This document shows, one piece after another, positions 18,943 to 64,000 of a stretch of DNA of 64,000 nt (positions are counted from its first letter, which is position 1; each line of letters opens with the position of its first letter). The stretch is from positions 3,497,283-3,561,282 of the forward strand of contig OZ250151.1 in the NCBI GenBank assembly GCA_965237725.1, written 5' to 3'. This stretch comes from Candidatus Spongiihabitans sp. GTDB lineage: Bacteria > Pseudomonadota > Gammaproteobacteria > Arenicellales > Poriferihabitantaceae. A model generated the notes under the pieces. It was not told where the DNA came from. It did no database searches and saw only the letters and a program-made list of their open reading frames with translations. The position numbers were made by a program, and so were the translations under genes.

Positions 18943-20304
18943 ATGCTCCGGTTTGAGGCCAAAAGTCTTGCCGTAATTTCATTGCCATTAATTGCCGCAT
19001 ACCTTGGGGAGTTTGCAATGTTTGTTACCACTAAATTGGTAGTCGGCCAACTTGGTTATAGGGAGCTGGCCGCGGTAGGGATTGCGGGTGATATATCCTT
19101 TGAAATTCTAATTATTGTAATGGGGCTGCTTTCCATCGTCGGCGTACTGTGCGCCCAGGCTGAAGGCGCAGGGGAAAAGAAAGAGGCGGGGCTGGCGGTA
19201 CGCCAGGGAATGATTGTGTCGGTTATTCTCGGCATTCCTTGCATGGCATTAATCTGGAACCTGGATATCATCCTAGGGTTCACCGGGCAGGATCCGGTCG
19301 TTTTATCTCTAGTCAAACCATACGCTCACTATTTTTCCAGTGCAGTTTTGCCGATTCTATTTTTTGCGGTGTTGAGAAATTTCGTTTCAGCCCTGGCTAA
19401 ACCGATGATGGTCATGGTGATTAGTGTCATCGCGGTGTTCGTGAATTATGTTTTTACGGTGTGGTTTGTATTCGGCGGCATGGGTGTTCCAGCCATGGGT
19501 ATCGCTGGTGCCGGACTGGCGACCAATTTGGTTTCGTGGTTAATGTTTTTCGGTTTGTTGCACTACGTCTACTCAACCTCATCACTGCGAGGCTATGGCG
19601 TTTTTGCAGAACGTTGGCGATTCGATCCAGTGTTGTGCGGGAAAATTGTCCGGCTGGGAATCCCCGTAGCGGGGCTGGTTTTTCTCGAAGCGGGTATGTT
19701 TGTCGCAGCCTCTATTTTGTCAGGTATTGTCAGTGCTGAAACCTTGGCTGCCTATGAAGTGGTTACCGCTTGGGTTGGTATTCCTTTTGTTATCGCAATG
19801 GGTATAGCTGAGGCTACCATGGTACGGGTGGCTCATGGAATCGGTGGCAAGAATTTTCTCGCCGCGCGCCATGCCGGAATACTCGGTATGTGCATTGGTA
19901 CTGCTATACTGGTTTTGCTGATCATCGTGCCCCTTGGCTTTGCCAGTTATATCATTGACGCTTTCATCAATCCTGAGGATCCGGGTTTTGCAATCGTATC
20001 TTTGCTCGCAGTAGAAATTTTTACTATTGTTGTAGTTTTTCAGGTTTTCGACGGCTTGCAGGCGATCGCCGCCCGGGCGCTACGGGGTATGCACGACAAT
20101 GTAATTCCATTATGGATTGCCAGTTTTGGATACTGGTTCCTGGGGATCGGCGGTGGATCTTTGCTGGCATTCAAGTTTGATCTAGGCGGTGCTGGGCTCT
20201 GGTGGGGACTGGCATTAGGTGTAACCGCCACCGGATCTTTACTGTCGGGGCGATTTATGCAGGTATCTGGGCGAATGGTTAAGAGATCATTAGAAAATGG
20301 GTAG
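18943..20304 (+). CDS. MATE-family efflux transporter
   Basis: 453 aa with 12 TM segments. The conserved pattern is that of NorM-type MATE proteins. Confidence 0.75.
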   Translation: MLRFEAKSLAVISLPLIAAYLGEFAMFVTTKLVVGQLGYRELAAVGIAGDISFEILIIVMGLLSIVGVLCAQAEGAGEKKEAGLAVRQGMIVSVILGIPCMALIWNLDIILGFTGQDPVVLSLVKPYAHYFSSAVLPILFFAVLRNFVSALAKPMMVMVISVIAVFVNYVFTVWFVFGGMGVPAMGIAGAGLATNLVSWLMFFGLLHYVYSTSSLRGYGVFAERWRFDPVLCGKIVRLGIPVAGLVFLEAGMFVAASILSGIVSAETLAAYEVVTAWVGIPFVIAMGIAEATMVRVAHGIGGKNFLAARHAGILGMCIGTAILVLLIIVPLGFASYIIDAFINPEDPGFAIVSLLAVEIFTIVVVFQVFDGLQAIAARALRGMHDNVIPLWIASFGYWFLGIGGGSLLAFKFDLGGAGLWWGLALGVTATGSLLSGRFMQVSGRMVKRSLENG

Positions 20305-21163
20305 CAACCTTCGTGGAATTGTATTCATTTTGATTTCTGGAATCTTCCTGTCATTGAACGATGCCATCTCAAAATCACTGGTCGCACATTACCCGGCGGG
20401 ACAGATACTTTTTGTCAGTGGTACAACCGTGGCAATTCTTACCTGGGCTATTTTACGATTTCATATCGGTACCGGCGTTGTAATTAATAACTGGCCATGG
20501 CATGTCAGTCGGGGGTTGTTGTTTGCTATTGCATCCTATGCCTTTGTGGTTTCTCTCAAATTTTTGCCATTGGCCGAAGTGGTTTGTATTGCCTTTGCCG
20601 GGCCGTTGATTATGACTGTGCTTGGGAAATTTTATTTAAAAGAGCAGGTTGGAATTTATCGCATGTCTGCGGTTCTACTCGGGTTTGTTGGGGTGGTCAT
20701 CATAATAGAACCCGGCAGCATTAATTTTCAGTGGATTTTGCTGTTGCCATTAGTTGTTGCGCTGGGCGATGCGGCACGGGATGTCTTAACCCGTAAAATG
20801 GCACCGACGGAATCAACTTTATCTATTGTATTTAGCACTTCATTGGTGCTTGCCCTGGTTATGTCTTTAACCCTGTTTGGTGAATGGAATGTAATTGAAT
20901 TGAAACATGGGTTTCGTTTTGGGTTAAGTGCGGTCATGACGGTGGCGTCCTATATATTTATGGTAGAAGCCTACCGCCATTCTCCAACAGTGGTGATTGC
21001 ACCATTTCGGTATTTTCAGATTATCTGGGGCATCCTCGCAGGATTATTAATTTGGGGGGAAGTGCCCAAAACCACAATCTATATCGGACTGATTTTTACC
21101 GTGGGTTCGGGCATTTTTATTGCCATTAGAGAGGCCAGGGTTAAATCTGAAGCCAGTAGTTAA
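20297..21163 (+). CDS. EamA/DMT-family transporter
   Basis: 288 aa with 10 TM segments and a duplicated EamA-type organisation. Confidence 0.75.
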   Translation: MGSNLRGIVFILISGIFLSLNDAISKSLVAHYPAGQILFVSGTTVAILTWAILRFHIGTGVVINNWPWHVSRGLLFAIASYAFVVSLKFLPLAEVVCIAFAGPLIMTVLGKFYLKEQVGIYRMSAVLLGFVGVVIIIEPGSINFQWILLLPLVVALGDAARDVLTRKMAPTESTLSIVFSTSLVLALVMSLTLFGEWNVIELKHGFRFGLSAVMTVASYIFMVEAYRHSPTVVIAPFRYFQIIWGILAGLLIWGEVPKTTIYIGLIFTVGSGIFIAIREARVKSEASS

Positions 21164-21369
21164 TCTATATCGACTTCAACTTTTCCACCCATGGCGATAT
21201 CTGCGCATCGGCTGCCCCGTTCATTACAGATGACAACTTTCAGCGGTTGATTGGCAATGAAGACGGATTCCTGGGCAATAGCATTTTCAAGTGATTGTTG
21301 TGAACCTATCCAGATCAGGCTAACTGCTATTACGGTCAGTATAAAACGGGTGTAAAGATCGATTTTCAT
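21160..21369 (-). CDS. small secreted hypothetical protein
   Basis: 69 aa with an N-terminal hydrophobic signal-like segment and two Cys. Coding status is unproven. Confidence 0.3.
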   Translation of the reverse strand: MKIDLYTRFILTVIAVSLIWIGSQQSLENAIAQESVFIANQPLKVVICNERGSRCADIAMGGKVEVDID

Positions 21370-21530
21370 TTTGGATCCCCTGTGGTGTTGTGATGAATAT
21401 AAGGGTGGAAAGTATCACATCTTGTTGAAGGACCTTACTTATTATTAAACATGGATTCCGGATATCCTTGCAGGATTCCGGAATGACGGTGGGTGGGTTC
21501 CGAAATGACGACGAGTGGTTTAGTAGTAGT

Positions 21531-36088: not shown

Positions 36089-37117
36089 TCAAACGATATC
36101 CGTGTTCAATAAACTGGCATCCCAGTTGTCTGGGTCGGTTAAATCAACGCCATTGATATTTTGAAAACTTAATCTTTGGGTATTGAAATTAGTTAGCAAA
36201 TAGGGGCGCTGGGCTGTTTCTATTTCGATGGATACTGCAAATTGGTTTTCCGTCAAAAGTTCAAGTAGGGATGCTGGGATTGCAACCGAGGATATTGCGA
36301 TTGGATTGTGTCTTATAGCTTTAACAATATATTCAACCACTGCGGCGTAAGTTTCATCTGTATCTGCGCTCAGTTGCAGAATACATATCGTATTGGAAGT
36401 TCGATTTCTTCCCAGAATAGCGTAACCACATAATTCCGAATTATCAGCATAAATTACCCGATACTCGCAGCCCGGATTCAATAGACGCCACTTAAAAAAT
36501 TCAGCAGTTTTATATGTGGTTGCAGGGTAAGGGTCGGATTGAACTTGACAATAATGAGCTAACTCATTTTCGCGTAATGGGCCGCTGGATAGTCTAATCC
36601 CCAAAGCTTTAGAAGCTGCACTGGGCAATTGATCCAGATCACTAAAAGGTAAGCCTTGTTTCATCGCACCTCCAGACCCAGATTTGTAATATATATCCCA
36701 CGGTCCAACGGTGAGCCAGTTACGCCGTTGGGATAATCCTGCGACAACAGGCCCAGGGCTGAGATTTATTCCAAAGTCGAATTTTTGCTCCAAAGCCAAT
36801 TCGAACAAGGCATCTGTCATTTTACTCACCAGGCCTCTGCCTTCGTAAGATTCCCGTACCACGGTGCCACCAAAACAGGCCAGCTTTTTTGGTTCTAAAG
36901 ACGCGCCAATTTTCCACTCCAGACCATAGGCATTACGAGTACCCACTACCTCTCCACTGTCTATGGCAACAACAACGAGGGGTTGATCAGAAACCGGATT
37001 TGCAATGTGCTTCCATTTAAATATCTGAGCAAGGCGCTGGGGCGTGGCGCTGGATAGGCGTTGGTATAAGATCAGAAGATCTTCCAGGTAACGAATATGA
37101 AATGGAACAATTTCCAT
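36089..37117 (-). CDS. GNAT-fold acyltransferase-like protein (two-lobed)
   Basis: VVRESYEGRGLVSKM fits the GNAT acyl-CoA-binding R/Q-x-x-G-x-G/A motif. It is the last gene of the 39027->36089 minus-strand cluster. Confidence 0.55.
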   Translation of the reverse strand: MEIVPFHIRYLEDLLILYQRLSSATPQRLAQIFKWKHIANPVSDQPLVVVAIDSGEVVGTRNAYGLEWKIGASLEPKKLACFGGTVVRESYEGRGLVSKMTDALFELALEQKFDFGINLSPGPVVAGLSQRRNWLTVGPWDIYYKSGSGGAMKQGLPFSDLDQLPSAASKALGIRLSSGPLRENELAHYCQVQSDPYPATTYKTAEFFKWRLLNPGCEYRVIYADNSELCGYAILGRNRTSNTICILQLSADTDETYAAVVEYIVKAIRHNPIAISSVAIPASLLELLTENQFAVSIEIETAQRPYLLTNFNTQRLSFQNINGVDLTDPDNWDASLLNTDIV

Positions 37118-37154
37118 AATGTCAGAAATTAACGTTTACGCTATGGTTTAGCAG

Positions 37155-38207
37155 CTATATTTTTAGTCGTTGGAAACCACCCCAATTTTCCAGTGGTTCA
37201 TAATTTTCTGATTCCAGTTGCAGGTCTTTTATAATCAGGCCAATCATGTCTTCGATAAGTTGGTATTTTAGGTTGCCCGAATATTCTGGCGTCATCGCCG
37301 GGCCACGATTACATTCGATAAGCCAGGGCTGCATGTTGCTATCGATCATCATATCCAGACCAATCAATTCGAAGCACATACGTGGGTCACCTAATAACTT
37401 ATTTGTTGTTGCCTGTAATGGTTCAGTGATGGAATTGAGGGTATCTATAAGGATTTTCTCAATTTGCGCCCATGTATTGGATCCGGCGGTTGTTTTTGAC
37501 GCATAGGATTGCCAATATTCAATGGTGCGACAATGAATCTCGGCGTCATAGTCCGGGTGGGTGGATTGGACCCCTGAATTGGTGTTGTACATGTAGTCAC
37601 TGACCAAAGGATCGTGTCCCGGTTCATAGGGAATGACACACAAGTCGGTACAACCTTCATTATATAAATAGGCGGTTAATGGATTGGTATTGACGATCAG
37701 AAGATACAGCCGAAGATTGTATTTACAGCCGTCAATCAAATGAACGTCATCGAGATATTCCTGTACCAGCCATTCCCCCGAGATCGGCATTTCTGACACA
37801 TCATTAACCCGTCTGATATATCTTCCCCAGGATCCACCTCTTGGTTTTATTAGCCATTGACCGCAGTCAAATATTTTCGAGATATCATCCTTTTGATCGG
37901 GCCAAAGATAGCTTTTTGGGAAATATCGCGGAAAATTGTCTTTATCGTGATTATTAGAATAGGCGTTGGAGAGATTTTGAAACAGCGACCACTTGTTGGT
38001 CAGTACAGATATGCCAGGAATATGGTTAATTCTCCGACCGGTAGGGATATGTTTGTAAAAATCCCGGGGTGGTTCTTTGTCGTTGTACCAGAGAATATCC
38101 CAATCGGGTGTTTCAACCTGAATTACGCCGGCGTTTTTGAAACCCTGGATGACAACCTGTGCGGATGGGTCGGATACAGGGCCGACAAATCCAAACTTTG
38201 TTGCCAT
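37155..38207 (-). CDS. tubulin-tyrosine-ligase (TTL/TTLL)-family ATP-grasp enzyme
   Basis: Four serial TTL-family blocks are present: RINHIPGISVLTNKWSLFQNL, WLIKPRGGSWGRYI, VQEYLDDVHLIDGCKYNLRLYLLIV and CFELIGLDMMIDSNMQPWLIECNRGPAM. Confidence 0.8.
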   Translation of the reverse strand: MATKFGFVGPVSDPSAQVVIQGFKNAGVIQVETPDWDILWYNDKEPPRDFYKHIPTGRRINHIPGISVLTNKWSLFQNLSNAYSNNHDKDNFPRYFPKSYLWPDQKDDISKIFDCGQWLIKPRGGSWGRYIRRVNDVSEMPISGEWLVQEYLDDVHLIDGCKYNLRLYLLIVNTNPLTAYLYNEGCTDLCVIPYEPGHDPLVSDYMYNTNSGVQSTHPDYDAEIHCRTIEYWQSYASKTTAGSNTWAQIEKILIDTLNSITEPLQATTNKLLGDPRMCFELIGLDMMIDSNMQPWLIECNRGPAMTPEYSGNLKYQLIEDMIGLIIKDLQLESENYEPLENWGGFQRLKI

Positions 38208-46931: not shown

Positions 46932-47642
46932 ATGTTCAGTCCAGCGGTAATTGAAAAACTGGAACACTATGTTTATTTTCTTCAGGATCCAAGAAGCGAT
47001 GAAGTATTTTACGTCGGTAAGGGCATTGGTAATCGCGTATTCCACCACGCCCAGGATGCACTGGAACCTTTTGAAAAATCCGCCAAGCTCGATCAGATTC
47101 GACAGATTTATGCCAGCGGACATGAGGTCAGGCATTTCATATTAAGGCACGGATTGACCGAAGTCGTTGCGTTTGAAATCGAGGCTGCGTTTATTGATTA
47201 TATTGGCATGGAAGATTTGTCCAATGTTATGGGTGGGCACTATTCCAGTGACTTCGGGCTCAAGAGCCCAGGTGAAATAATCGCCATGTACCATGGCGAA
47301 GAATTAGATGCGGACTTGCCCATAATGCTGATCAATATCAATAAACACTATGGTCGGGAAATGAGCCAACGCGAGCTCTACAATATCACCCGAAAGGCCT
47401 GGCGAGTCGGTACTCGCCGGGAAAAGGTAAAATATGCAGTTGCGGTCTATGGCGGTTTAACACGTGAAGTGTATCGGGTTAAAAAATGGTTCCCGGTTAA
47501 GGTTAAAGGGAAAATCCGCTGGGGGTTTAAAGCAAAAGGGGGTGCGATCAATTTGGAGGTTCTGGAGAAGCTGCGATATAAATCAGTTCGCTCATATTTT
47601 AAGCCTGGCGCCACTAATCCGATCAAATATTTAAATTGTTAA
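46932..47642 (+). CDS. GIY-YIG-domain nuclease-family protein
   Basis: YVYFLQDPRSDEVFYVGKGIGNRVFHH matches the GIY...YVG...R motif series. I do not recognise the C-terminal ~130 aa. Confidence 0.55.
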   Translation: MFSPAVIEKLEHYVYFLQDPRSDEVFYVGKGIGNRVFHHAQDALEPFEKSAKLDQIRQIYASGHEVRHFILRHGLTEVVAFEIEAAFIDYIGMEDLSNVMGGHYSSDFGLKSPGEIIAMYHGEELDADLPIMLININKHYGREMSQRELYNITRKAWRVGTRREKVKYAVAVYGGLTREVYRVKKWFPVKVKGKIRWGFKAKGGAINLEVLEKLRYKSVRSYFKPGATNPIKYLNC

Positions 47643-56194: not shown

Positions 56195-56405
56195 GGTACA
56201 CTTCACTTTGGTATTACCTGCGGTGTTCGAGTTGTTCTCCGAATCCCTTAGAACCTAATATTTATACTCGGGTGCTGTTATGAATGACCGGCGTGTATGA
56301 CCCCAGCCTGGCTGGTGCGAATCCCAAAGTTATTCTTTGTACCCACTTGGACCTCCTTGGTTCAAGGTAAAGTGAGCATACGGCACTCGCGGGTAATGCT
56401 TTTTA
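56195..56405 (+). ncRNA. ssrS: 6S RNA (SsrS)
   Basis: A non-coding gap lies in the conserved zapA-ssrS-ygfA position. The 3' part, ccttggttcaagg...cggcactcgcgggtaatgc, resembles E. coli 6S (CCUUGAACCAAGGGUUCAAGG...GCCUGCGGCGGCAUC). The 5' gtattacctgcg can pair with the 3' cgcgggtaatgc. An internal hairpin CCAGCC/GGCTGG is present. A T-run follows the closing helix. The ends are approximate. Confidence 0.7.
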
Positions 56406-57033: not shown

Positions 57034-57225
57034 TAAATTACTGAAACCTCTGCGATAGTCATGTCGGACCAAATTGAGTCCAAACTTTCCAATATTTTCG
57101 TTGGACAACTTCGTAATTGATCGACTATTGCGTGGGTTCCCCGTCTTAATCTAGAAAAGTTTTTCTATCAACTTGATTCGCCCAGATATAGGCTTTCTCA
57201 ATTGCTAGCATAGAATCTTTCTAAA

Positions 57226-57258
57226 ATGATATGACTAAAGTCACATCATTTTTTATTA
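57226..57258 (+). terminator. candidate Rho-independent terminator
   Basis: The stem ATGATATGAC / GTCACATCAT (9 of 10 pairs) has a TAAA loop and is followed by TTTTTTATT. The stem is A/T-rich, so this call is weak. Confidence 0.4.
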
Positions 57259-57622
57259 CAATTTGGTAGAAAAGGGCTAACAAGGGATATTGATGATAGT
57301 TTCATTTTAGGTTTACTCTCGATTTTATCTAAACCTTAAAGGTACAGCTTATCTGTAAAAAGCGACACTTCGTTTGAAATATTCGTATTCGCATAAAATT
57401 TAAGTTAGTTTCAAAGTGCTCCGTGGGGTTGAATTAGTTACACCCCACAAACTGTCTTTGAGATTAGTTTGAGAGACGTTTGGTAATAGTCAGACTTTGG
57501 TAGGTACGTAAATTAGTACTCCAATAGTCAGTCTCGGAAAAAATGGAAGCGCACTAGTAAATCTTGGCCATTTAAAACTAAATGGCGTATTTGGATTGAA
57601 CGAGAAATGAAAAGGGAAATTA

Positions 57623-59092
57623 ATGGATTTTTCACTGCTCAAAATCTACGGTATTACATTTCATGGCGGTGGAATTATATCTACTGTGGGCTTTACTTTT
57701 CGATCTCAGTGGCTATTAGGACTTTTTCGTCGCCTTTGCTTCGTCACAGTCTTAGTCTATTCGTCTTTCCCAACTTTTCTCCATGCCCAAACCCAAGACT
57801 ACATCGAATATCAATACGATGGTGCGGGGAATATTATCGGCATCATTACTAAGAATAATGGAGGACAACCTGATGTAACTAGCCTGGTCCCCGACCATGT
57901 TAATCGGGATAAAACAATTACGATTAGCGCGGCAGGCGTGAATCTTTATAAAGCACAAGTTGCCACGGATCACGACGGCATCACTATATTAAATACTGAG
58001 ACGATTTCATCGGAATTGGTTAAATTTACAATTTCATCAAAATTTGATGCGGAAATTGGCTTTGCGAATTTCACCTTTACCACAAGATTAGGGAGGGATA
58101 TCGAATCAATTTTTGTCGCAATAAGACTTCCGGTCATTTCAACAGACCCAAATCCGATTGCACTTGTGGCAAGTGGACCAAGCCGTCCTGTATCGCTCAC
58201 ATTTGATTTGCCATATCCAACAGATCAGGAGTTTAACCTGGCGGCCTCAAATACATCATTAGCAAAAACCAATGTTGGCAGTGTGACATTAGAGGCAGGC
58301 TCAACAGAAGCTTCATTTTTCATGGCGGGGTTAGAAAAGGGAGTTACAACCCTCGAAGTATCCCAGCCTGCGGCATTCTCTGGCGTATCCATCCCGGTTT
58401 TTGTCTCTGATCCTTTTGATTTGCCAAATGGAAATACCGAATTTACCAGTAAATCTGTGGGAGTTACGGTTAGCCGTTTTGATCTTTCAACAGGGGAATC
58501 TGAATTTGTTTTATCCACAGTGGGTGTTCTAAGAAATGCCAATGAATTGATCGTTGGGGATAAATTTGTTCATTCAAATTCAGTGGGTATTTCGATGCCC
58601 GCCCCAATTAACGAGCTACCTAGCGGAAACGCATACCTAAATACCGAACCTTTGGGTGTGTTAAAAAATTCAGAAAACATGTTACCTGAGGGTGAAAGTT
58701 ATTCTTACAGCGATTTGCTTGGCATAAATATTAATACAGAATTTCTCCTTCCCAATGGGGACGCATCATTGTTGTCTGATGCATTGGGCGTGACCAATCC
58801 TCCCTACATCAATAATCGATCTCATGGAAATTTTAGTCAAGGTTCCTCCCTAATATTAATATTAACGGGTGTAGGTCTCGATGTTTCGAGGACAGTAATA
58901 TTTGAACCAACAACAGGAATAACACAATCGTCGGTATTTGTCGTCAATCCAGCTGGTACTCAAATTGAAGTGTTCCTGGACATCAGCCCAACGGCGTCTT
59001 TAGGCCCGCGACAAATAAAAATAAACACCTTAACTGGAGCAGTTCCATTTATCCAATCTACTAACGAAATTTTTCAAACAATTAGTAATTAA
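57623..59092 (+). CDS. secreted repeat protein (single YD motif, Ig/IPT-like domains, 6x ~22-aa repeat)
   Basis: Signal-like LLGLFRRLCFVTVLVYSSFPTFLHA followed by YIEYQYDGAGNIIGI (YD-repeat motif). The start codon is uncertain; an internal GTG is possible. Confidence 0.6.
   Translation: MDFSLLKIYGITFHGGGIISTVGFTFRSQWLLGLFRRLCFVTVLVYSSFPTFLHAQTQDYIEYQYDGAGNIIGIITKNNGGQPDVTSLVPDHVNRDKTITISAAGVNLYKAQVATDHDGITILNTETISSELVKFTISSKFDAEIGFANFTFTTRLGRDIESIFVAIRLPVISTDPNPIALVASGPSRPVSLTFDLPYPTDQEFNLAASNTSLAKTNVGSVTLEAGSTEASFFMAGLEKGVTTLEVSQPAAFSGVSIPVFVSDPFDLPNGNTEFTSKSVGVTVSRFDLSTGESEFVLSTVGVLRNANELIVGDKFVHSNSVGISMPAPINELPSGNAYLNTEPLGVLKNSENMLPEGESYSYSDLLGININTEFLLPNGDASLLSDALGVTNPPYINNRSHGNFSQGSSLILILTGVGLDVSRTVIFEPTTGITQSSVFVVNPAGTQIEVFLDISPTASLGPRQIKINTLTGAVPFIQSTNEIFQTISN
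58418..58798 (+). repeat. six degenerate tandem ~21-23-aa protein repeats (L-P/S-x-G ... S..(L/V)G(V/I))
   Basis: Repeat starts fall at aa 267, 288, 309, 332, 354 and 376 of the 489-aa protein: LPNGNTEF..VGV, LSTGESEF..VGV, LIVGDKF..VGI, LPSGNAY..LGV, LPEGESY..LGI and LPNGDAS..LGV. Confidence 0.6.
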
Positions 59093-59141: not shown

Positions 59142-60596
59142 ATGAAACACTTGTATATCTATTCAACGTCACTAATTTTATTGATACTAACATTTACAAA
59201 CTCTCTTGCTTTCGAAAGCGGTAGTAATGGGTCCGATGGCGTTCTAAATGTGACTGTTGATACTGTCTTACAACTTCCGGCGAGCGGCGTATTTAATTTT
59301 ACGGATGTGACAGTGGCCGAAGGTGCGACGTTGAGATTTAGAAAAAATTCATCTAATACGCCGGTTTATCTTTTAGCTAGTGGCAATATTACAATCGAAG
59401 GTACGATCCAGGTTAATGGAGAAACCTCAGTCAACACTGATGACGACGACCGGGTCGGTGACGGACAACCAGGTTCAGGTGGCGCGGGTGGATTTGACGG
59501 GGGACGAGGCGGATACATTGGTATTGATGCTGATAACGATGGTGCTCCGGGTCAGGGGCCAGGAGGAGGGAACCCTGGAACACTCGCAAAATCTTGTGCA
59601 TTTGAATTTTCCGGAACAGGTGGTGGTGGTGGTGGGTATTTTGCCGCCGGTTTGAAAGGCGACTCTGGGGGAGCTGGCGGACAAGCTTATGGGGTTAGTT
59701 ACTTAATCCCGTTGATTGGCGGATCAGGAGGTGGGGGCGCTTCTGGTCCTGGAAATAGCGGTCGCAGTAACACCTTTGGTTCTGGAGGCGGTGGAGGCGG
59801 TGGCGCAATGTTAATTGCGTCATCAGGATTAATCTCAATTACAGGGACAATCACGGCAAATGGTGGTGGTTCTGGGTCAGTTGTAAAACCTTCGGGTGGA
59901 AGTTGCGCGACTGGAGGTAGCGGTGGTGGTGGCAGTGGTGGTGCAATTCGAATTATTGCCAGCAAGCTTACGGGTACTGGAACATTGAGGGCAATTGGCG
60001 GTGTCGCAGCGAGAGATGCACGTGAGAAAGGTGGACGCGGATCACATGGTCGAATTCGACTTGAAGCCGATGAGTTTCAATGGTGGGTAGCAACAACTCC
60101 TTCATTTAGTTCATCCGCACCAAACCCGGTATTTGTAGCGGATCTCCCTGGAATCGTAATCAGCTCTGTTGGCGGCATTAATGCGCCCGGTTCACCAACT
60201 GGCTTTAACGATATTATTCTACCTGACAATACACCTAACCCAGTTACAGTGGAATTCACAACAACAGATATACCCACAGGAGGTGTAATCGAATTAACTG
60301 CGACTCCCGTTACAGGATCTAGCGTTACAGTCAATAGTTCCGCAATTGGTGGTTCAGAAGCAAGCGGGTCGGCATCAGCCTTAATCGATTTACCCAACGG
60401 CCCCAGTACGTTGATTGCCACAACGACATTTCTGGTTATCGCCGATCTTGGAAAAGATTATTCAAAATATGTCATGGGAGAAGAAGTGAAAGAAGTGAAG
60501 ATTGCTTCTGTTGCAGGTCAGGGCTCGGTTACGACTTTTATTACAACCCAGGGTAATGAATACCCTTGGCATACGGGGCAGCTTTCAAATAACTAA
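59142..60596 (+). CDS. secreted glycine-rich, probable beta-solenoid protein
   Basis: Signal peptide MKHLYIYSTSLILLILTFTNSLA, with AGGAG upstream of the ATG at 59142. Poly-Gly runs alternate with I-x-I-x-G-x-I strands (ISITGTITANGGGSG, AIRIIASKLTGTGTLRAIGG, GRIRLEAD). Confidence 0.6.
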   Translation: MKHLYIYSTSLILLILTFTNSLAFESGSNGSDGVLNVTVDTVLQLPASGVFNFTDVTVAEGATLRFRKNSSNTPVYLLASGNITIEGTIQVNGETSVNTDDDDRVGDGQPGSGGAGGFDGGRGGYIGIDADNDGAPGQGPGGGNPGTLAKSCAFEFSGTGGGGGGYFAAGLKGDSGGAGGQAYGVSYLIPLIGGSGGGGASGPGNSGRSNTFGSGGGGGGGAMLIASSGLISITGTITANGGGSGSVVKPSGGSCATGGSGGGGSGGAIRIIASKLTGTGTLRAIGGVAARDAREKGGRGSHGRIRLEADEFQWWVATTPSFSSSAPNPVFVADLPGIVISSVGGINAPGSPTGFNDIILPDNTPNPVTVEFTTTDIPTGGVIELTATPVTGSSVTVNSSAIGGSEASGSASALIDLPNGPSTLIATTTFLVIADLGKDYSKYVMGEEVKEVKIASVAGQGSVTTFITTQGNEYPWHTGQLSNN

Positions 60597-60649
60597 GCAA
60601 TGAGCCAGTTGAGTTTGAACAACGATGCAAATTGCATAGTGGAATTAGC

Positions 60650-63600
60650 ATGAAACCAAATTGGAAGTATTGCCGAATATGGGTGGCTTCAGTTTTTCGA
60701 GTATCTTCTCGAAGAAAAAATTCGAATGGTCGACTCTCCCATCCAATTGAACAAGTAGGAAAAACGACCTTAGGTGGGGCAATCTTCTTAGTTTTCATGG
60801 GAATGGGAGCATTAATCTGGCAGTCCCACGTTACTGGGCAAGTTTCCCAACCCATTAATTCCGCGCCCTGGGTTGGTGAAATAACGGGAATTTTTAAACT
60901 AGACACTGATGGCCAACTAGTCAATCATTTCAAGCTTGGTGAAGAAATTGAAGACAGAGACATAGATTGTTCACCGCTGGAAGAATGGCAAGAGAAAGTG
61001 AAGTATCGGAAAGGGGATTTTGTACAACATAATGGCAATGCCTGGCGGGCCAATAAAAAAACCAAGAAGGAACCAAAGGCGGGCGGAAAGGGGTCAAAAG
61101 GTCCCAAGGGATCGAAAGGATCCAGGGGATCGAAAGGTTCCAAAGGTTCCAAGGGTTCCAAGGGTTCTAAAGGTTCCAAAGGTTCCAAAGGTTCCAAGGG
61201 TTCTAAAGGTTCGAAAGGTAATGGCTCGAAAGGCAAAGGTTCGAACTGGGCGTTACTAGGCCCTTGTGCATCCGACTCAAACGATAAGTCAACTGGTGTG
61301 ATTGGGCTAATTGACGACGAATCCATATTGTGGGCCTACCTTCACGATCACCGTTTATATCAAATTAATACCGATAGCGAACAAATTACCGAAATTATCT
61401 TCCCCGATCCACCCCAGGACGGTAATTTCGATTGTGCTGATTTAAATCTCTGGGATGCTTCAGAAAAATATAAGAAAAACGATTTTATCGAATTCATCGG
61501 ACATGCCTGGGAAGCCAAAAAATCAACCTCTAAAGAACCCGATTTGTCATCGGATAAATATTGGAAAGATTTAGGAGAGTGCATAGCGGATGTTAACTAT
61601 GCGGGACACCTCATAACCGATGGACAAGTGCTGTGGCTAGCACGAGGGAGGCAAATTATTCGCTATGAGAATGCAATAGCGGAATCGTTTGAAACGATAA
61701 ACCCAGTCAATGCCATCACCTGGGATGAAATCAGTCAGCAATTGTGGGTTGCATCCGGTACAACTTTCGAGCGCAGAATTGCGAATGGAACTATTGTCGA
61801 TGTAGATTCCTTGACTAACGGCCCAGTAACCGCCATGGGTGTGGATCTTCGCAATGGTTATTTATGGCTTAGCACAAATTCAGGAGTGTTATCACAATAC
61901 GATGCGAATAGTACTTTCATTGGTAATCTGATTTTGCCAATGGGTGTGGTCGAGCATATTATTTCTGATAATCAGGGTGGGTTGTGGGTAGCGGACGCGA
62001 GCAAGGTTATCAACCTGGACGAATTCGGAAACATTGTGCAAATTCTCGAACCCGTACTGGGCGGTAGTGCCATTAGAGATATTACAGTCGCAGCAGACGG
62101 TAGTTTGTGGATAGCCACTGCAGATCAACTTTGGCGCTACGATGACGTCCAAGGTCTAACCCAAGAATGGGTAGCCCCGAGTGCAAACCCGATTATCGTA
62201 AATGTTCTTTCACAACAAGTTAGCCATAACAATCCGCCAGAAATTACTTCGGACCCTATTACCGACGCAATCCTTAACGACAATTACAGCTACGATGTTA
62301 TAGCGACAGATGCAGATGGAGATGATCTGGAGTTTCAATTAACCGCCGCACCTGTTGGAATGACCATCGATGAATTCACAGGTTCAATCTTATGGCTTGC
62401 GGACAGCATAGGCGACTTTGATGTAACTGTTGAAGTATTCGATACCCGAGGTGGGGTTGATAGTCAAAGTTTTACGGTTAGCGTCATCGATCCAGATACC
62501 ACGCCGCCAGTCATTACCCTGACCAGCCCCCAGAACGGACTCCTGACCAATAATTCAGTACTCTCCATCGTGGGATTCATAGACGAGATCGCCACGTTAT
62601 CGCTAAATGGTTCGCCCCTTTCCCAAAATCCAGATTTGTCGTTTGGCGCTACCGTTAGTTTGGTTGAAGGGATCAATAATTTTGTGCTCAATGGGGTAGA
62701 CCCTTCTGGAAATTCCAGTGATGTTTTATTCAGCGTTACATTAGACAGCATCGCGCCACAAATTGTGGTCAGCTCACCCAGCGATGGCGATTTAACTAAT
62801 GAGGAAAATCAATCCGTTGAAGGTAGCTTATCGGAATCCGCTGTACTCACCATCAATGATCAGTCGGTTACAGTTCATCCATCATTAGATTTTACAAGCG
62901 CCCTTACCCTAATCGAAGGCAACAACACCATAACCCTTGTTGCTACTGATCCCGTTGGCAATCAATCCACCACAAACCTATCCGTTACCTTAGATAGCAT
63001 TGCACCAGAAATCACTAACTTAGTCCCAATATCGGGTTCGTTTACCAATATTCCAAACCAAACTATTTCTGGTCAACTAAGCGAACCCGGCAGCGTAACC
63101 GTTAATGGTAATGCAGCGACGGTAAACAAAGATGACTCATTTGTGTTTACCCCTTTTGCGTTAACCGAAGGGGCCAATCTGATCGATATCACAGCAACGG
63201 ACTCAGCGGGAAATTTTACTGATGCTCAGATTAACATTACCCTAGATACAGTAGCGCCGGTTATACAACTCGATGCGCCAAACAACAACGTTCAATTTAA
63301 TAATCCAGATGTTCTGTTTGAAGGCACTGTTAGCGAGCTTGTCAATCTAACTATTAATGGTGATGCCATAGCCTTAGAAAATGATAATTCATTTAGCGCA
63401 ACCCTGACCCTGTTAGAAGGGGATAACAGTGGGGACATTGTGGCCACCGATTTCGCGGGAAACCCAACGACGATTACCCGTCAAATCAATATCGATTCGA
63501 TCCCCCCAGCAGCCATTGATCAGGGCTTGGTCAATCGGGGTAATCCCACTAATGAAATTGTTATGGTCAGTGGTTTGCCCGGGGCCGCAGAACCCGGAAG

Positions 63601-64000
63601 TCTGGTGCATATCATCAACATCATTACCAGCTTCGAAGTATTTACCCTTGCTCAAAATGATGGCAGTTTTTCAGCGGATATAGCCGCATTCGATAACGAA
63701 CCGTTTACCTTGTTTAGCGTTGATGCTGCAGGTAACCAGGGACCGTCATTTGTACTGGTCCCACCAAACCCGCCGTCTTTAATTCAGGATCCAGTCGGAA
63801 ATCGTATTGCACCTTTAGGCAAAACAACGAGCTTTACGATCACAGCAAATGATAGCGATGGCGATCCCATAACCCTGGGCGTGACCCCGTTGCCCCTGCT
63901 AGATGGCATGACCTATAACATCGTCACTGGTGAAGTCAAATTTACTCCATCAGAAGATCAAGTGGGTGATCATGAATTAATCTTTAGCGCCCAGACCGAT
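60650..64000 (+). CDS. giant surface/adhesin-like protein, 5' partial (>1117 aa, continues past the window end)
   Basis: I hand-translated this frame from the ATG at 60650 to base 64000 with no stop. It is absent from the ORF track, presumably because it is open-ended. It contains an N-terminal TM (GGAIFLVFMGMGALIW), two CBM5/12-like Trp motifs, a (GSK)n array, LW-rich propeller-like repeats, PPEITS...DADGDDLEF cadherin/He_PIG-like domains and five Ig-like modules. Confidence 0.85.
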   Translation, partial: MKPNWKYCRIWVASVFRVSSRRKNSNGRLSHPIEQVGKTTLGGAIFLVFMGMGALIWQSHVTGQVSQPINSAPWVGEITGIFKLDTDGQLVNHFKLGEEIEDRDIDCSPLEEWQEKVKYRKGDFVQHNGNAWRANKKTKKEPKAGGKGSKGPKGSKGSRGSKGSKGSKGSKGSKGSKGSKGSKGSKGSKGNGSKGKGSNWALLGPCASDSNDKSTGVIGLIDDESILWAYLHDHRLYQINTDSEQITEIIFPDPPQDGNFDCADLNLWDASEKYKKNDFIEFIGHAWEAKKSTSKEPDLSSDKYWKDLGECIADVNYAGHLITDGQVLWLARGRQIIRYENAIAESFETINPVNAITWDEISQQLWVASGTTFERRIANGTIVDVDSLTNGPVTAMGVDLRNGYLWLSTNSGVLSQYDANSTFIGNLILPMGVVEHIISDNQGGLWVADASKVINLDEFGNIVQILEPVLGGSAIRDITVAADGSLWIATADQLWRYDDVQGLTQEWVAPSANPIIVNVLSQQVSHNNPPEITSDPITDAILNDNYSYDVIATDADGDDLEFQLTAAPVGMTIDEFTGSILWLADSIGDFDVTVEVFDTRGGVDSQSFTVSVIDPDTTPPVITLTSPQNGLLTNNSVLSIVGFIDEIATLSLNGSPLSQNPDLSFGATVSLVEGINNFVLNGVDPSGNSSDVLFSVTLDSIAPQIVVSSPSDGDLTNEENQSVEGSLSESAVLTINDQSVTVHPSLDFTSALTLIEGNNTITLVATDPVGNQSTTNLSVTLDSIAPEITNLVPISGSFTNIPNQTISGQLSEPGSVTVNGNAATVNKDDSFVFTPFALTEGANLIDITATDSAGNFTDAQINITLDTVAPVIQLDAPNNNVQFNNPDVLFEGTVSELVNLTINGDAIALENDNSFSATLTLLEGDNSGDIVATDFAGNPTTITRQINIDSIPPAAIDQGLVNRGNPTNEIVMVSGLPGAAEPGSLVHIINIITSFEVFTLAQNDGSFSADIAAFDNEPFTLFSVDAAGNQGPSFVLVPPNPPSLIQDPVGNRIAPLGKTTSFTITANDSDGDPITLGVTPLPLLDGMTYNIVTGEVKFTPSEDQVGDHELIFSAQTD
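61082..61243 (+). repeat. 9-bp tandem DNA repeat (GGTTCCAAA-like) encoding a Gly-X-Lys collagen-like triplet array
   Basis: In frame it reads GGK GSK GPK GSK GSR followed by 10 x GSK, giving 15 uninterrupted G-X-Y triplets. It then degenerates to GNGSKGKGS. Confidence 0.9.
62495..63760 (+). repeat. five tandem ~84-aa Ig-like modules within the giant ORF
   Basis: The recurring frame is D(S/T)(I/V)(A/P)P.I...P..G..TN....(V/I).G...E...(L/V)T(I/V)NG......D.SF.....L.EG.N.I...A.D..GN, repeated five times. Confidence 0.75.

Follow-up and report, generated by a model that had tools for sequence, protein, structure and literature searches.

The window analysed here is a stretch of 64,000 nucleotides from Candidatus Spongiihabitans sp., a member of the Gammaproteobacteria (contig OZ250151.1, assembly GCA_965237725.1). 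Three co-directional genes, referred to as genes 1, 2 and 3, stand at its downstream end, with genes 1 and 2 immediately upstream of gene 3. Gene 3 was delineated by translation, Pfam searches and homology; its first 1,117 codons occupy positions 60650..64000 on the plus strand, where the gene is cut by the window end. This open reading frame (ORF) is probably the 5′ part, perhaps ~40%, of an intact gene whose product would be a giant surface protein, exported by Sec and anchored at its N-terminus, of the Rhs/YD-repeat polymorphic-toxin type. Its visible part of 1,117 residues makes up a stalk for display and binding. We infer the continuation of the window gene into an RHS region, a toxin and an immunity gene from its nearest orthologue and five related loci.

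The frame from 60650 to 64000 contains 1,117 codons and zero stops, and the other five frames across the same interval contain 30–94 stops each. The open frame is far beyond chance, and re-translation found no in-frame stop, in agreement with a preliminary description of this DNA. The nearest in-frame stop upstream is a TAA at 60590–60592, which leaves a TTG at 60632 and an ATG at 60650 as start candidates; the ATG is aligned with the start of the orthologue at a related locus, L003. Gene 3 was omitted from the mechanical ORF list because it runs past the window end. Two minus-strand ORFs, 60541–60924 and 60925–61326, do exist in that list and had been called artefacts. The former had zero family matches and the latter only a sub-threshold, low-complexity match to Amelogenin, leaving no credible family for either, whereas the plus frame has Pfam domains above curated cut-offs and collinear protein homology to the giant proteins of three loci, L003, L004 and L007.

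The locus with the closest relative, L003, was reached through the nearest relative of gene 2 (65% identity). Three successive ORFs of L003, lying in three frames, align collinearly with residues 5–790 of gene 3 (joint E value 1e-142). The homology runs across both breaks, and the three ORFs are one gene split by two small indels. The reconstructed orthologue is 2,645 amino acids (aa) long and shares with gene 3 the anchor, the two Cys/Trp modules, the propeller and the He_PIG/immunoglobulin-like (Ig-like) modules. Beyond this stalk it continues into RHS repeats (189.8 bits), followed by the Rhs core motif PVNWIDPRGL and a 117-aa, Cys-rich C-terminal tip. A lipoprotein-like ORF of 185 aa with the lipobox-like signal LLTSGCS lies downstream (19360–19917); it suggests an immunity protein located in the envelope and, by extension, a toxin that would act in the periplasm. 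Compared with solved structures, the L003 shell was closest to the Rhs proteins 7Q97 (1e-46) and Tse5 (6e-40) and was more distant from the teneurin-like protein (TLP) 9PT5 (6e-17) and from TcdB2-TccC3 (6.5e-8). The two frame breaks of L003, at 12795 and 13228, may represent assembly errors or real decay; a GGGG run is the site of one. Just downstream of this Rhs locus, a group II intron reverse transcriptase is encoded at 20519–21446.

The Ig-like stalk of gene 3 has close relatives at two further loci. Over residues 782–1117 it shares 52% identity with a 2,605-aa protein of L007 that contains a transmembrane anchor, He_PIG, Glucodextran_B and CarboxypepD_reg domains and RHS repeats (184.9 bits), the transthyretin-like CarboxypepD_reg domain preceding the RHS shell. 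Its match to the RHS core model is weak (residues 2366–2401, 17.1 bits, below the cut-off of 27.9), and its tip is weakly Tlde1-like. An orphan Rhs C-terminal cassette with the core motif PIHFSDPLGL lies downstream of the main L007 Rhs gene (20169–21479); its 115-aa tip has a precomputed Pfam match to SAA (serum amyloid A), which is unusual for a toxin tip. Residues 525–1117 of gene 3 are 44–46% identical to the giant of L004, which is longer than 2,083 aa. Candidate immunity genes were found downstream of the giant at L007 (216 aa) and L008 (112 aa), in addition to the lipobox-like 185-aa ORF at L003. A scan of a genome collection with gene 3 returned He_PIG-domain matches only, in Marinobacter and Roseibacillus, and no orthologue; a metagenome scan with the N-terminal alignment of gene 3 returned zero relatives.

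Genes 1, 2 and 3 recur as a cassette. Seven independent loci were collected via the gene 2 family (L003–L008 and L010), as a sample rather than a census, and in all seven a gene 1-like gene is followed by a gene 2-like gene and a giant surface protein. Gene 2 is 44–65% identical to its counterparts in the five loci compared by tblastn. The giants of L004 and L006 run off their contigs; in each of the five loci with a visible C-terminal part (L003, L005, L007, L008 and L010) the giant is an RHS/YD-shell protein with an RHS/YD repeat array. These relatives, which end in an RHS/YD-shell toxin, shift the likely function of gene 3 from adhesion to toxin display or delivery. Complete operons for a type II secretion system (T2SS) directly adjoin the cassettes of L004 and L007 (two of the seven loci), and no type VI secretion system (T6SS) genes were found in the seven loci. 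At L004 (8704–14319) the gene 1-like/gene 2-like pair is tandemly duplicated (392 and 486 aa, then 432 and 492 aa) with one giant downstream, and the whole cassette is divergent from the T2SS operon.

The visible part of gene 3 begins with a basic N-terminal tail (residues 1–38) and a hydrophobic helix (residues 39–57, 60764–60820), which together span 60650..60820 on the plus strand, as do all gene 3 features below. The helix is predicted to be a Sec signal-anchor or a long signal peptide. The membrane anchor proposed earlier has a counterpart in L003, where the motif TLGG...LIWQ..V[ST]GQ is kept; analogous N-terminal hydrophobic segments are present in the L004 and L007 giants. Two strands predicted by AlphaFold2 (AF2) follow at 60866..60934 (PWVGEITGIFKLDTDGQL...; model positions 23–27 and 33–38, residues 80–95). 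They belong to the propeller described below and are kept in L003.

Two CBM5/12-like Cys/Trp modules lie in the N-terminal region. Module 1 (C107...C206, 60968..61267) matches Pfam CBM_5_12 (PF02839) at residues 112–134 with 30.8 bits against a cut-off of 26.2, or 27.7 bits when the sub-sequence is scanned, so that the earlier reading of its Trp motif as CBM5/12-like holds; the match spans just the first half of the model (positions 1–23 of 44). The columns shared with L003 are Cys, Trp, Tyr and Gly and include the aromatic residues W113, Y119 and W132. Module 2 (C262...C311, 61433..61582) had been recognised as a second copy of the motif. It scores 16.4 bits (E value 0.0095) against CBM_5_12 in the sub-sequence scan, yet its local alignment score with module 1 is 116, compared with 24.7 ± 5.1 for shuffled sequences, which identifies the two as true duplicates. 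Both modules are bracketed by cysteines that are conserved in the L003 alignment and would form disulfides. The 450-aa ORF of L003 has a single CBM_5_12 match (residues 256–282, 26.6 bits), which falls over its second Cys/Trp module.

Module 1 contains a (G-S-K)n array of 16 Gly-X-Y triplets (61082..61225, residues 145–192), nearly all of them G-S-K and with one proline. Tandem Repeats Finder describes it as a 9-bp unit, AAAGGTTCC, repeated 13.7 times at 61097–61219. The preliminary description had listed this array as a collagen-like segment between domains. It instead forms part of module 1, where it separates 'EP' from the closing 'W..LG.C', and its score against Pfam Collagen (PF01391; residues 144–192) is 26.0 bits, under the cut-off of 27.2. 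At the same position L003 has an unrelated 24-residue linker without the array, and the array is predicted to be disordered, with a predicted local distance difference test (pLDDT) score of ~27–31 in the AF2 model. On these three grounds we rejected the collagen reading; the array is predicted to be a lineage-specific, Lys-rich disordered loop and not a conserved collagen domain. Matches of gene 3 to 'spindle fibril' and collagen entries of the PDB were also discounted, as they cover the low-complexity array only.

The blade-like repeats reported earlier were recovered as a propeller. One blade lies between the two Trp modules (residues 216–249, 61295..61396; four AF2 strands at model positions 160–192) and is kept in L003, and five more four-stranded blades of the Reg_prop type follow at 61598..62179 (20 AF2 strands). 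The AF2 model of residues 58–530 was built from four sequences and has a pLDDT of 75.6 and a predicted template modelling score (pTM) of 0.67. The GSK array aside, its beta-structure consists of the two N-terminal strands, the inter-module blade and the five blades. Foldseek matched the model to seven-bladed propellers (template modelling score, TM, 0.70–0.71; root-mean-square deviation 4.4) and also to the propellers of the BT4663 and BT3049 sensors. Together with this fold match, repeats above the Pfam cut-off (Reg_prop, 29.8 bits against 20.4, sub-sequence scan) assign the region to the Reg_prop-type propellers. The Trp modules appear best read as insertions in one roughly seven-bladed propeller, the blade count of the model being uncertain. 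The N-terminal module as a whole is rare: phmmer against 1.84 billion representatives returned just two proteins below 1e-30, and the remaining matches, at 1e-22 or worse, were mainly long multi-repeat proteins. At E ≤ 1e-10 this exhaustive phmmer search gave 233 matches; the matches annotated in word-indexed searches were Reg_prop sensor kinases.

The propeller is followed by a stalk of Ig-like domains. A He_PIG domain carrying a DADGDD motif occupies residues 530–612 (62237..62485; 32.8 bits, cut-off 24), as had been proposed from its DADGD motif, and is 42–47% identical to the He_PIG repeats of a Marinobacter locus, L001. Five Ig-like modules of ~84 aa had also been described, and all five were found. 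Four are Glucodextran_B/Big_13-type modules of 83–84 aa (62495..63493) that begin at residues 616, 699, 782 and 866 and share 32–39% identity. Glucodextran_B matches them with 140.4 bits over four stretches, the best being residues 703–782 (cut-off 27), and Big_13 matches best at residues 798–867 (46.1 bits, cut-off 27). The fifth module, from residue 949 (63494..63769), is divergent, being 21–32% identical to the other four, and resembles Big_6 (residues 976–1036, 25.2 bits, just below the cut-off of 27.6). A second He_PIG/Big_9-like domain (63770..64000) is cut by the window end; Big_9 matches it at residues 1057–1114 (29.9 bits, cut-off 23.6), and it aligns to the last Ig-like domain before the RHS region in L003 (14382–14600).

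Genes 1 and 2 belong to conserved families that have no entry in Pfam or NCBIfam, and both of their proteins are singleton clusters at 90% identity. Gene 1 (57623..59092, plus strand) encodes 489 aa and is 49% identical to its L003 counterpart. Its signal peptide is directly followed, at the mature N-terminus, by a single YD repeat (YQYDGAGNIIGI; I.Y.YDGAGNI) and then by Ig-like domains and LGV repeats. Five gammaproteobacterial members retain the YD motif, the window, L003, L004 (two copies) and L007 being among the aligned sequences, and it is recognised as Pfam RHS_repeat with 38–39 bits in L008 and L010. Gene 2 (59142..60596, plus strand) encodes 484 aa from M16, the start of the form on record. 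It combines a signal peptide, a Gly-rich solenoid and two C-terminal beta-sandwiches, and has 2,514 relatives at E ≤ 1e-3 among 8,000 candidates scored. Its protein had no match in Pfam or NCBIfam, and no significant match in the PDB by fold or by profile. The AF2 model (pLDDT 86.9, pTM 0.76) consists of a solenoid-like Gly-rich body, which has a pLDDT above 90 and is almost without regular secondary structure, and the two beta-sandwiches. In the BFVD database this fold matched Gly-rich 'collagen-like' virus proteins (E values 4e-12 to 1e-6, TM 0.33–0.38), all predicted proteins of viruses, giant viruses included (Pandoravirus, Orpheovirus, a Bathycoccus virus and phages).

From these data we propose how the locus might work. 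Past the window, gene 3 would go on to encode a YD/RHS shell and the autoproteolytic Rhs core motif (PxxxxDPxGL) and would end in a short and variable toxin tip, with a small immunity gene behind it. Sec would carry the product across the inner membrane, after which it may stay attached to the cell surface or be released from it. A T2SS could serve for export, a route we propose because two of the seven related cassettes abut T2SS operons; gene 3 itself has a hydrophobic N-terminal segment. The propeller/CBM head and the Ig stalk would contact a glycan-bearing surface, be it a competitor cell or a particle, and the encapsulated toxin would be handed to competitors. Genes 1 and 2 would be dedicated, co-transcribed secreted partners: the lone N-terminal YD hairpin of gene 1 would plausibly dock onto the YD shell through strand addition, and the Gly-rich solenoid of gene 2 may be a spacer, a receptor-binding element or a membrane-approaching element. 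More tentatively, genes 1 and 2 could constitute an undescribed, widespread accessory module for the mounting, display or delivery of Rhs/YD-shell toxins that diderms export by Sec, independently of the T6SS, with gene 3 as a cargo bearing an unusual glycan-binding propeller/CBM head.

Several observations weigh against this scheme. The window, where gene 3 runs off the end, contains neither RHS repeats nor a core motif, a toxin or an immunity gene, and T2SS genes are absent among the 27 upstream ORFs annotated by Pfam in the partly annotated window. The roles given to genes 1 and 2 draw on synteny and motifs only, and the YD motif of the window's own gene 1 is by itself sub-threshold as RHS_repeat (15.4 bits). 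The propeller blade count comes from a four-sequence AF2 model with a pLDDT of 75.6. Furthermore, at L006 the cassette precedes a giant with PKD, Big_9 and cellulose-binding-like (Sde0182_C) domains and no RHS in its visible 1,078 aa, so that a cassette with a plain adhesin behind it is conceivable. Gene 3 would then be a pure giant adhesin whose head and Ig stalk bind chitin or other polysaccharide particles, and whose unseen C-terminus consists of repeats or a sorting signal. The preliminary description, too, had read gene 3 as an adhesin-type exoprotein. All visible domains (CBM_5_12, Reg_prop, He_PIG and Glucodextran_B) are indeed adhesin-like, and NCBIfam gave weak matches to Ca2+-stabilised adhesin repeats and LapB repeats; the RHS/YD-shell toxin ends of the relatives had not been foreseen. 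We consider an adhesin without a toxin unlikely, however, given that the sole protein sharing the distinctive N-terminal module, that of L003, ends in an Rhs toxin, that the best matches to the Ig stalk either end in RHS (L007) or are cut off (L004), and that the giant is an RHS protein in every cassette with a visible C-terminal part.

The shell-toxin reading also has to be distinguished from two other protein types and from gene decay. A TLP in the strict sense is defined by a superfold of FN-plug, NHL propeller and YD shell (PMC13018210). The type II-like anchor, the beta-propeller, the Ig domains and what is probably a YD shell would suit such a protein, as would the precomputed Pfam TEN_YD-shell matches in relatives and the match of the solved TLP 9PT5 to the L003 shell. 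But no NHL, FN-plug or TTR-TIP match was found by Pfam in the gene 3, L003 or L007 proteins, the propeller is of the Reg_prop type and far from the shell with the Ig array between them, and the L003 shell is much nearer to classical Rhs proteins (1e-46); a strict TLP is thus very improbable. The same proximity is what could argue for a T6SS Rhs effector, as the best solved matches of the L003 shell are T6SS Rhs proteins. Of all the alternatives this is the one we credit least: the N-terminus is a basic tail with a hydrophobic helix and has no PAAR, DUF4150 or VgrG-related match in Pfam or NCBIfam, the seven related loci are devoid of T6SS genes, and the neighbouring genes 1 and 2 carry signal peptides. 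A decaying gene, intact in the window and broken downstream so that no full-length product is made, is improbable, too. It would accord with the two frameshifts that split the nearest orthologue, and with the protein collection, which returned no full-length gene 3 product even though both neighbours are on record. Against it stand the 1,117 uninterrupted codons and the nature of the L003 breaks, which are small indels in a metagenome assembly, one of them within a stretch of G, and could be due to sequencing error. The word-indexed protein search, also when run without the GSK array, yielded nothing above ~1,900 aa and misses intact relatives of 2,057–2,605 aa, and very long proteins are probably not indexed; the missing self-match of gene 3 was therefore rejected as a sign of a pseudogene.

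Rhs toxins with Sec/T2SS-type export are already a known kind: Zhang et al. 2012 (PMC3482391) defined a Sec/T2SS class of RHS polymorphic toxins, whose N-termini bear adhesion domains. The activity of the Rhs bacteriocin Bcn-A of Xanthomonas perforans needs xpsD and downstream accessory ORFs (PMC7259588), and a 2025 survey describes gspG-linked Rhs families in Xanthomonas (XRhs F VIII) and Ralstonia (RRhs F II), for which T2SS export is unconfirmed (bioRxiv 10.1101/2025.05.08.652813). Bcn-A and these families share with gene 3 and its relatives an N-terminal signal or anchor in place of PAAR, a T6SS-independent context and an occasional linkage to T2SS genes, the RHS region of gene 3 not being visible in the window itself. 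Bcn-A differs in being 1,398 aa long with accessory ORFs 2–4 downstream, whereas the partners of gene 3 are upstream and come from families outside Pfam and NCBIfam, and the giant has a long propeller/CBM/Ig stalk. With its downstream accessory genes and other layout, Bcn-A was rejected as a homologous system and retained as a functional precedent only.

Bacterial TLPs have been reported to have no obvious delivery machinery, with downstream immunity genes only and no upstream partners (Raoelijaona et al. 2026, PMC13018210). What they have in common with the proposed toxin is a surface-displayed YD shell, variable N-terminal adhesion domains, Sec targeting, a ~15 kDa polymorphic tip and a downstream immunity gene. 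They differ in the FN-plug and NHL superfold, undetected in the visible part of gene 3 and in its full-length relatives, and in that the L003 shell is closer to classical Rhs proteins. The hybrid two-component sensors BT4663 and BT3049 (Reg_prop and Y_Y_Y) have the same type of propeller repeat, in glycan-sensing periplasmic domains that occur among both the fold matches and the sequence matches. Unlike these sensors, the visible part of gene 3 is without a kinase or receiver module, and its propeller heads a surface protein and bears two CBM5/12-like insertions.

WapA of Bacillus subtilis and Streptococcus suis, a Sec-dependent, wall-associated YD-repeat toxin of contact-dependent competition, resembles the proposed gene 3 product, but works from a Gram-positive envelope with no outer membrane to cross. 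We know of no counterpart of genes 1 and 2 in the WapA systems. In the literature searched, a YD-tagged Ig protein paired with a Gly-rich solenoid upstream of the toxin is not described, which makes the cassette of genes 1 and 2 a candidate for a new accessory module of an already known kind of toxin.

Genes 1 and 2, whose relatives in Gammaproteobacteria, Burkholderiales and Myxococcota precede such toxins, are concrete and testable candidates for a part in how Gram-negative cells display or deliver those Rhs and teneurin-like shell toxins that have no T6SS handle. In the window, the gene omitted from the ORF listing is the largest at its locus, and it probably serves as a weapon in competition and not simply as an adhesin. 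Without an RHS region beyond the window, gene 3 would be an ordinary, though architecturally unusual, giant adhesin.

An A/T-rich intergenic gap, which is presumed to be a regulatory region, precedes gene 1. The gap, given as 590 bp in the preliminary description, measures 589 bp (57034..57622), and gene 3 stands, as had been stated, third in a cluster of co-directional genes for secreted proteins behind it. GC content in the gap is 0.35–0.36, compared with ~0.43–0.46 in the surroundings. Scanning its plus strand for sigma-70-like sites gave none above shuffled sequences, which makes the promoter scan uninformative, and no plus-strand terminator-like sites were found between genes 1, 2 and 3. 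The chromosomal genes upstream encode two UbiH-type FAD monooxygenases, aminopeptidase P, a UPF0149 protein and a short-chain dehydrogenase, ZapB-like and ZapA proteins and 5-formyltetrahydrofolate cyclo-ligase. A full-length 6S/SsrS RNA (56212–56399, plus strand, 65.9 bits) lies between zapA and the cyclo-ligase gene, and this order of zapA, 6S RNA and cyclo-ligase is the classical gammaproteobacterial arrangement.

Elsewhere in the window, a tubulin-tyrosine-ligase family/ATP-grasp protein (TTL, 148.7 bits) is encoded beside a weak-GNAT protein at 36089–38207 on the minus strand, a pair that is uncommon in a bacterial chromosome. An ORF at 46932–47642 on the plus strand contains a LEM-3-like GIY-YIG nuclease domain (62 bits).

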